Under the pieces are notes generated by a model, which was given only the letters and a program-made list of their open reading frames with translations, was not told the DNA's origin and ran no database searches. A program made the position numbers and the translations under genes. Shown here piece after piece: positions 1-711 of a stretch of 1,983 bases of DNA. The stretch lies in NCBI RefSeq assembly GCF_044324875.1, contig NZ_CP172192.1. One strand, given 5' to 3'. This DNA comes from Escherichia coli (lineage in GTDB: Bacteria; Pseudomonadota; Gammaproteobacteria; Enterobacterales; Enterobacteriaceae). Each line of letters opens with the position of its first letter. Positions within the stretch are counted from its first letter, which is position 1.

Positions 1-33
1 TGCGCGGTCCGACATTCCCACATCCTGTCCCGA
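1..33 (-). repeat. Inverted-repeat arm, proximal 33 bp (reverse complement of 289..321), truncated by the window start
   Basis: Exact 33/33 reverse-complement match to 289..321. Together with 1933..1983 it reconstitutes the full 84-bp arm if the window ends are joined. Confidence 0.95.
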
Positions 34-288
34 AAATTCCCGCCGTTTCTCGGTTTTTTGAGCGTCGCAGACCGCACGACAAACGAAACGAAGTGTAGTT
101 TGTATGAGTGCGCACTTCGTGAGATTCCCCGACTGCCAGTTTGTCGATCGCGCGGAACAGCTGTGGCACGAAAACGGCAGAATGATTTGCTGTCCGGTTG
201 CCAGAACTGCGCGCTTACGTGGAGGGCGGCGCGGCGCAAAAAACTGCCGACATTGCGCCAGTGTTCCGGTGACACAAACCCGCAGAAA

Positions 289-372
289 TCGGGACAGGAT
301 GTGGGAATGTCGGACCGCGCACGCTCGCTCAGACATTCCCCACCTGGTCAGGGCTTCGCCCCGACACCCCGC
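289..372 (+). repeat. 84-bp arm of a perfect inverted repeat (internal copy)
   Basis: Compared by eye base by base: reverse complement of 322..372 equals 1933..1983 and reverse complement of 289..321 equals 1..33, with no mismatches. Identity stops at 373 versus 1932 and at 288 versus 34. Confidence 0.95.
301..343. other. Nested stem-loop inside the repeat arm
   Basis: GTGGGAATGTC (301..311) pairs with GACATTCCCCAC (332..343), one extra C as a bulge, around a 20-nt GC-rich loop. The same structure exists in the other arm across the window junction (1964..1973 with 11..19). Confidence 0.6.
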
Positions 373-513
373 CAACGCCTCACGGCACGCGAAAAAATTC
401 CGCGTACCGCTCACCGTTCTTGAACTCGTCAAACAGAAAATCGCGGGGCCCCGCGCCTCCGGCGTGGGTTCCGATTTTGTGATTGACGACGGCACGGGGA
501 AAACGCTGGGTAT

Positions 514-568
514 GGTGGTTGGTGTCACGGAGTGAGGCCAACCACCTGCAAGACGGTTTTTTGTTGTT
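514..568 (+). other. Stem-loop followed by a T-rich tract
   Basis: GGTGGTTGG (514..522) pairs perfectly with CCAACCACC (538..546) around a 15-nt loop. TTTTTTGTTGTT (557..568) follows after a 10-nt gap. Confidence 0.3.
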
Positions 569-601
569 CACAAAATTGGGGTGAAAGTCTGTGGATGAGA
601 T

Positions 602-634
602 GGGTGTAAGTGGGTGGGGTTGGGAGGTTTTGGG
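602..634 (+). other. G-run cluster fitting a G-quadruplex motif
   Basis: GGG 612..614, GGGG 616..619, GGG 622..624, GGG 632..634 with loops of 1, 2 and 7 nt, plus extra G-runs at 578..581 and 602..604, within a GT-rich stretch 577..640. Confidence 0.3.
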
Positions 635-675
635 TTACTGAAAATCCAGCTCAAAATTCAAGCAAATCTCGCGCG

Positions 676-711
676 CGATCCTTGTATTTATACTTAAGGG
701 ATAACTCTAGG
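676..711 (+). promoter_or_regulatory. AT-rich island with a second nick-site-like motif; alternative dso or rep promoter region
   Basis: CTTGTATTTATACTTAAGGGATAACTCTAGG (681..711) is the only AT-rich stretch in an otherwise GC-rich window. CTTGTAT resembles CTTGATA, and TAAGGGATAACT resembles the TAAGGGTAACT that I recall downstream of the pC194 nick; that recollection is unverified. Confidence 0.2.

Follow-up and report, generated by a model that had tools for sequence, protein, structure and literature searches.

The transfer origin (oriT) that the IncI1 plasmid R64 carries was characterized by Furuya and Komano (1991, 1997 and 2000, cited here through later accounts). The minimal R64-type oriT spans about 85 bp immediately upstream of nikA and contains 17-bp and 8-bp imperfect repeats, the former belonging to the NikA site and varying among plasmids with different NikA (PMC3817090); NikA itself is a ribbon-helix-helix protein (PDB 2BA3). 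According to one account, the nick region together with 'repeat A' forms the core needed for transfer (PMC4743918, citing Furuya and Komano 1997) and, according to another, the inner arm of the repeat is enough for initiation and the whole repeat is required for termination (PMC5863519, citing Furuya and Komano 2000). The closest described replicon is the Escherichia coli plasmid pBuzz, which, according to papers that cite Moran and Hall (Plasmid 2019;101:10-19), is a 1982-bp plasmid with two inversely oriented oriT copies, without relaxase or accessory genes, that is mobilised efficiently by a co-resident B/O plasmid; the rolling-circle relatives of pBuzz are described there as carrying oriTs of other Inc types.

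The sequence analyzed here (the window, 1,983 nucleotides) is a whole circular plasmid whose start point differs from that of the database record, and is 100% identical to both the Salmonella Enteritidis plasmid pB (NC_005002.1) and the E. coli plasmid NZ_AP027664.1; below, we refer to it as pB. When the whole plasmids were compared, the window was 99.5% identical to pBuzz (MF156267). The two represent the same replicon, in which both 84-nt arms of the inverted repeat described below are identical, the oriTs have the same inverse orientation and the spacer has the same orientation; they differ by a few substitutions outside the arms and by host (E. coli for pBuzz, Salmonella Enteritidis for pB), and pB was deposited earlier. 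Because the arms of pBuzz are identical to those of the window and have already been described, the twin-oriT feature was already known and the present result is a rediscovery; given that the twin oriTs were published in 2019 and that the anatomy of R64-type oriTs has been known since the 1990s, it carries little weight as a discovery.

The sole convincing gene in the window is rep (944-1933, + strand), which encodes a rolling-circle initiator of the Rep_1 / pC194-pUB110 family (Pfam PF01446, E = 1.1 × 10−84), is annotated as 'protein rep' in NC_005002.1, and ends in a stop codon that abuts the first of the two oriTs (oriT-A); mobilisation genes are absent. A search of NCBIfam gave zero matches for Rep or for the two spacer-spanning ORFs. 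In the PLSDB record of pB, only rep and a hypothetical ORF are annotated, and MOB-suite typing via PLSDB assigns the replicon to ColpVC and labels the plasmid 'mobilizable'. RefSeq includes a 78-aa 'hypothetical protein' (WP_000263637.1, window 299-535, + strand) that crosses the second oriT (oriT-B) and has no family match; this call and the other ORFs overlapping oriT-B are probably spurious. Separately, a 150-kb conjugative E. coli plasmid (NZ_OK236218.1, 83348-84048) matches window positions 62-693 at 90% identity, which suggests, judging from the alignment, an integrated fragment of a pB-like plasmid.

When the window was compared by megablast with 72,556 plasmids, 2273 records matched, most of these being large conjugative plasmids aligned only over positions 286-371. 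This segment matches more than 1600 conjugative I-complex plasmids with 79-95% identity, and in all 10 conjugative or large relaxase-encoding plasmids that were examined (including pO113, pND11_107, PDM02, pMTY1881, p14EC033g, pSH267-2, an IncK2/Z plasmid, and Leclercia and Enterobacter plasmids), the matched site is found between a mobC-like gene and nikA/mobA-nikB, 14-16 nt before the nikA/mobA-like gene. The arms were identified as an IncI-complex oriT because the match sits at the oriT position upstream of nikA-nikB, and they contain the other hallmarks of such an oriT, namely, the nick core, a repeat of about 17 bp located 8 nt from the nick, and the 8-bp repeat. A cis-encoded accessory protein and relaxase, which accompany the oriT in the IncI complex, were not found in the window, where only rep is encoded; the arms of pB are orphan oriTs that depend on a relaxase in trans, rather than a full mobilisation module. 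Thus, in all probability, the 9-mer GACATTCCC, which recurs in the arms, is the outer half of the repeat arms of a B/O-type (IncI-complex, MOBP) oriT that is carried twice in inverse orientation and is mobilised by a helper.

Across the circular junction, the two arms form a perfect 84-nt inverted repeat, with arm A at 1933-1983 plus 1-33 and arm B at 289-372, such that the repeat I1 (322-372 / 1933-1983) is joined to the repeat I2 (1-33 / 289-321) and 255 nt separate the arms. Each arm holds an 18-nt imperfect palindrome with 83% complementarity (303-320 / 323-340 and 1965-1982 / 2-19), and the 9-mer makes up the outer half of either palindrome arm. The outer part of oriT-A (1933-1983, + strand), which aligns with the oriTs upstream of nikA, consists of the 8-bp inverted repeat, GTCGGGGC (1940-1947) and GCCCTGAC (1951-1958) with GAA in between, followed by the distal arm of the 18-nt repeat (1965-1982). 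The inner part (1-33, + strand) contains the nick-proximal repeat arm (2-19), the presumed counterpart of 'repeat A' of R64, as well as the nick region CACATCCTG|TCCCGA, with the nick predicted by homology at G27|T28 (+ strand); the distance of 8 nt between the repeat and the nick was read off the sequence (from C19, the last position of the proximal arm, to the nick after G27). On the opposite strand, oriT-B (289-372, − strand) is a complete inverse copy, with the 18-nt repeat at 303-320 / 323-340, the 8-bp repeat at 347-354 / 358-365 and the homology-predicted nick at 295|294 (− strand). Accordingly, the nick core CACATCCTG|TCCCG is present at 20-33 (+) and at 289-303 (−), and, on the nicked strand, each arm reads GGGGTGTCGGGGCGAAGCCCTGACCAGGTG-GGGAATGTCTGAGCGAGCGTGCGCGGTCCGACATTCCC-ACATCCTG|TCCCGA. 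As a single strand, the arm folds into exactly the 8-bp and 17/18-nt hairpins (−25.3 kcal/mol, z = −4.9). The two predicted nicks face each other, so that the spacer (34-288) would be the leading segment in transfer from either oriT.

The exact 9-mer, GACATTCCC or its complement GGGAATGTC, occurs four times in the window, compared to 0.016 occurrences expected from base composition, and with up to one mismatch allowed there are 5 matches compared to 0.61 expected, a number reached in none of the 200 shuffles. The sequence-only reading had reported four inverted copies, two per arm, and these are real and far above expectation; two of its coordinate ranges were off by one, with the copy placed at 1964-1972 actually located at 1965-1973 and the degenerate stretch placed at 122-140 located at 121-139. 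In oriT-A, the 9-mer forms the end of the nick-proximal arm (11-19, + strand), 8 nt 5' of the nick, and recurs in the distal arm (1965-1973, − strand, reading GGGAATGTC on the + strand); in oriT-B, it is found in the nick-proximal arm (303-311, − strand, where the nicked strand reads GACATTCCC) and in the distal arm (332-340, + strand). The four copies are not independent but represent one palindrome duplicated once (two arms by two halves). That reading did not include the identity of the arms as oriTs, the nick site CATCCTG|T or the homology to conjugative plasmids. As for the degenerate copy GAGATTCCCCGACTGCCAG (121-139, + strand), it lies outside both I-complex oriTs, contains a one-mismatch version of the 9-mer, GAGATTCCC, at 121-129, and begins exactly at the end of a region of MOBQ4-type oriT homology discussed below. 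The 121-129 match is the single one-mismatch match in the window and is within chance expectation, and a fifth motif site at this position was rejected given that the stretch is retained in the sister plasmid L006 and in pPM18, the oriTs of which lack the 9-mer.

Compared to the R64 oriT, the arms of pB show the identical CACATCCTG|TCCCG, a 17-bp repeat 8 nt from the nick, the same GTCGGGGC/GCCCTGAC 8-bp repeat and a similar length of about 85 bp, whereas the long repeat differs, with GCAATTGTAATA... in R64 and GGGAATGTCGGA... in the window, the changes being compensatory on both arms. Furthermore, R64 has one oriT located next to nikAB, whereas the window contains two copies and no nik genes. 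The B/O-K-Z conjugative plasmids of the 'IncB p3521' type (pO113, p14EC033g, pSH267-2) are closer, with the same 9-mer pair and 95.3% identity over 86 nt; in these plasmids, the oriT occurs once, upstream of a nikA-like gene (WP_001291058.1), and shows four changes in the distal arm and loop and one in the loop of the 8-bp repeat. From the closest conjugative-plasmid oriT, the arms differ at 4-5 positions, which are situated in the distal arm and loop. More distantly, the oriT of IncP plasmids (RP4) and the T-DNA borders have in common with the pB oriT the nick core ATCCTG|Y and a repeat located 5' of the nick, whereas the repeat itself, the accessory proteins (TraJ/TraK) of RP4 and the flanks are different. 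To our knowledge, there is no detectable nucleotide homology between the pB oriT and either IncP oriTs or T-DNA borders outside the nick core.

To characterize the variation of the repeats, 22 distinct oriTs from conjugative and small plasmids were aligned. The nick-region columns are invariant in all 22 oriTs, there is hardly any change in the 8-bp repeat, and the variation is found in the 17-nt repeat. Across the two-repeat structure, 94.2% of the cells are standard pairs; for the 8-bp repeat, this fraction is 98.9%, although the repeat hardly varies. In the long repeat, both sides change in 8 of the 17 pairs, and for the 9-mer, 6 of the 9 pairs covary, as illustrated by GGGAATGTC/GACATTCCC vs. 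GCAATTGTA/TACAATTGC vs. GTAATCGTA/TACGATTAC. Double-sided changes were found in 52 cells, compared to 17.6 ± 2.9 in shuffled alignments (this number was reached in 0 of 500) and to 3-11 in slid controls, where the partner was shifted by 1-3 columns. At the level of the alignment, the compensatory changes across the 22 oriTs support selection for pairing. Among the NikA proteins encoded beside different repeat types, the C-terminal half is conserved and the N-terminal (ribbon-helix-helix) half, which binds DNA, is divergent, and the B/O-type NikA is 58-59% identical to the I1-type overall. Because the repeat covaries and tracks the N-terminal half of NikA, the repeat, together with the 9-mer, acts like a determinant of helper specificity that needs self-complementarity, and we infer from these sequence comparisons that the 9-mer-bearing repeat sets which helper's NikA recognises the oriT. 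The suggestion in the sequence-only reading of a site for a dimeric DNA-binding protein or a conserved single-stranded stem thus pointed in the right direction, given that the motif belongs to an oriT repeat that corresponds to the NikA site by analogy with R64 and forms a covarying hairpin; the part that failed is the choice of the plasmid's own Rep as the candidate binder.

This choice comes down to an alternative under which the 9-mers are iterons or a double-strand origin (dso) element bound by Rep. Short repeats near rep genes are often initiator sites, and arm A abuts the rep stop codon; nevertheless, the distribution of the motif leaves this reading with virtually no credence. The 9-mer is present in 2+2 copies in pB, pBuzz and pVCM01, in 1+1 copies in three sister plasmids with 94-99% identical Rep (L007, L008 and L009), and in zero copies in seven replicons whose Rep is 92-97% identical (L005, L006, L011, L012, L013, L014 and L017), which shows that the motif is not a Rep site. 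Conversely, two unrelated Col(MG828) theta plasmids (L015 and L016), which do not encode this Rep, carry the motif in the one copy of this oriT that they possess, and a pC194-like nick motif, CTTG|TA...AAGGGATAAC, is located elsewhere in the window, at 681-706. The motif does not co-occur with the Rep type among these replicons, as a Rep_1 site would; the count in related replicons, which the sequence-only reading had proposed as a check, gives 0, 1 or 2 pairs in accordance with the oriT type and not with Rep similarity.

In the sister plasmids, the two oriT slots vary in family, with the combinations B/O+B/O, I1+B/O, K/Z-like+B/O, or I1 alone; L012-L014 have a different oriT type in the slots, which the literature describes as L/M-like. 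The three ColpVC sisters with mixed pairs, I1 + B/O or K/Z-like + B/O, are L007, L008 and L009, and, judging by oriT type, such a mixed-pair 2-kb plasmid could be mobilisable by two helper types. Among the sisters, the repeat is exchanged as a unit while the flanks stay constant. The sequence-only reading held that its motif would be refuted if it were not conserved in homologous replicons in which the surrounding arm is; this is the pattern that was observed, but here repeat variation with constant flanks marks a specificity determinant swapped as one block, not a lack of function.

Under another alternative, the 84-nt inverted repeat with its 255-nt loop would be a single-strand origin (sso), where one or more hairpins of the displaced + strand prime the lagging strand and the 9-mers are stem elements. 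With a Rep_1 rolling-circle initiator encoded, the plasmid needs an sso at some position, and the arms would pair perfectly in single-stranded DNA. However, in the most common sister plasmids, the pJ-like plasmids of about 2096 bp with a 96% identical Rep, all of arm B except its outer 31 nt is missing, which precludes a long hairpin, and in other sisters, with two different oriT types in the slots, the centre of the stem is broken; a structure conserved among replicons sharing Rep and the dso, as in ssoA/palA-like origins, was not found. Moreover, the arms begin and end where the oriT unit of conjugative plasmids does, a search for promoter-like sites was negative, and an Rfam scan of the whole window at E ≤ 1 returned nothing. 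The spacer does not fold significantly better than shuffled sequences on either strand (z = −1.4 and −0.6), and a structured sso in the spacer was therefore rejected. Taken together, these observations make an sso formed by the arms very unlikely. A single-stranded promoter of the Frpo/ssi type, which would be expected in the leading region ahead of ssb/psiB/ardA-type genes with its -35/-10 elements formed in the stem, was rejected as well, given that the matches sit at the oriT beside nikA and not at leading-region genes; in this check, no promoter-like hexamers were found.

It could also be supposed that the arms were left over, without function, from an earlier recombination with a B/O plasmid and that the motif recurs only by duplication; indeed, one palindrome duplicated once explains the four copies arithmetically. 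We consider this extremely unlikely: the arms are 100% identical over 84 nt, and those of pVCM01 share a T-to-C change; twin oriTs are also seen with other oriT types and in pPM18, with a Rep only 73% identical; and pBuzz is reported to be efficiently mobilised (Moran and Hall 2019). The change in pVCM01 (L010, NC_019127.1) is found in both arms, at 1073-1156 and 1412-1495, which read CCAGGCGGGG as opposed to CCAGGTGGGG in pB. At the sequence level, this shared substitution, along with the 100% identity of the arms in pB, indicates concerted evolution, or gene conversion, of the two oriTs.

With the arms read as helper-dependent oriTs, a scenario of transfer can be outlined; the homology, architecture, covariation and distribution come from this analysis, whereas the mechanism is that of the R64 and pBuzz literature, projected onto pB. 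A co-resident B/O-type conjugative plasmid would supply the ribbon-helix-helix protein NikA, which, by analogy, would bind the nick-proximal arm with GACATTCCC and bring in the relaxase NikB. NikB would then be expected to cut within CATCCTG|T, at G27|T28 on the + strand of oriT-A and at 295|294 on the − strand of oriT-B, and the cut strand would leave in the 5'->3' direction via the type IV secretion system of the helper. After one round, the 17/18-nt and 8-bp repeats would form single-strand hairpins, upon which the relaxase would terminate and recircularise the strand; the two orientations would permit transfer of either strand. The repeat of pB contains 3 mismatches in 18 positions compared to 1 in 17 in R64, a caveat for the analogy.

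The same strategy of a relaxase in trans and a helper-derived oriT is known for orphan R64-type oriTs (pEC156 and the pCERC7/NTP16 family) and for the staphylococcal oriT mimics. The orphan-oriT small plasmids differ from pB in that they carry one copy each, and those of the pCERC7 type keep their own nikA, whereas pB has two inverse copies on a rolling-circle replicon. The plasmid pB is a clean natural example of a cryptic plasmid of less than 2 kb, with one gene, that spreads by copying only the oriT of its helper, and the 17-nt repeat appears as a swappable specificity module, with B/O, I1, K/Z or L/M-type repeats held in the same slots of the sister plasmids. It also demonstrates why annotation misses such oriTs, which are marked as 'none' or overlaid by a hypothetical ORF.

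The spacer contains a third oriT-like element, of the MOBQ4 type (44-120, + strand), in which an inverted repeat, ACAAAC (79-84) / GTTTGT (98-103), is followed by TGAGTGCGCACTT. This core agrees with the MOBQ consensus TAAGTGCGCCCTY in 11 of 13 positions, and about 500 small MOBQ plasmids show homology to the element between mobA and mobC (81-90% identity, E down to 2 × 10−15), so that it combines the two features of MOBQ4-type oriTs, the mobA-mobC intergenic homology and a repeat with the TAAGTGCGC nick core behind it. A compensatory change is seen in the repeat, ACAATC/GATTGT vs. ACAAAC/GTTTGT. In pIGWZ12, the match falls inside the 178-bp mobA-mobC intergenic region, which, according to the literature, was shown experimentally to be a MOBQ4 oriT. 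Because MOBQ4 relaxases, again according to the literature, prefer cis substrates at least 500-fold, the function of the 44-120 element in trans is uncertain.

The orientation of the spacer varies: relative to pB, it is inverted in pVCM01 (1157-1411 of NC_019127.1) and in NZ_CP039590.1, and junction counts yielded 67 records of the pB type and 2 of the inverted type. To judge from these junctions, the inversion implies recombination between the inverse oriT copies. The same cassette layout was observed in pPM18 (L030, NC_013652.1, 1714-2290), a Rep_1 plasmid with the replicon type Col(MP18) and a Rep 73% identical, where two inverse K/Z-like I-complex oriTs flank a MOBQ4-like element and a GAGATTCCCCGAC.GCCAG stretch. 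Conceivably, although we regard this as unlikely, the 460-bp block as a whole is a compact multi-helper mobilisation cassette with three oriTs, the inner segment of which is flipped by RecA- or relaxase-driven recombination; if so, flipping would change which strand of the rolling-circle replicon carries the inner oriT and any strand-specific priming signal of the spacer.

Outside the arms and the spacer, candidate replication signals were observed. A candidate rolling-circle double-strand origin, TCCTTG|TATTTATACTTAAGGGATAAC, is located at 662-706 and resembles the pC194-type nick motif, CTTGATA...AAGGGTAAC; otherwise unrelated plasmids of about 2.1 kb (H67-H70) show 95-97% conservation of positions 662-704. 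Between this stretch and oriT-B, a strong hairpin, GGTGGTTGG.../...CCAACCACC, precedes a T-run, beyond which the sequence is G/T-rich (window 514-563 and 580-640); this region may be an sso or a priming region. In the pJ-like plasmids (L006, 1327-1450), a longer TGTGGG-rich repeat tract takes the place of the centre of oriT-B.
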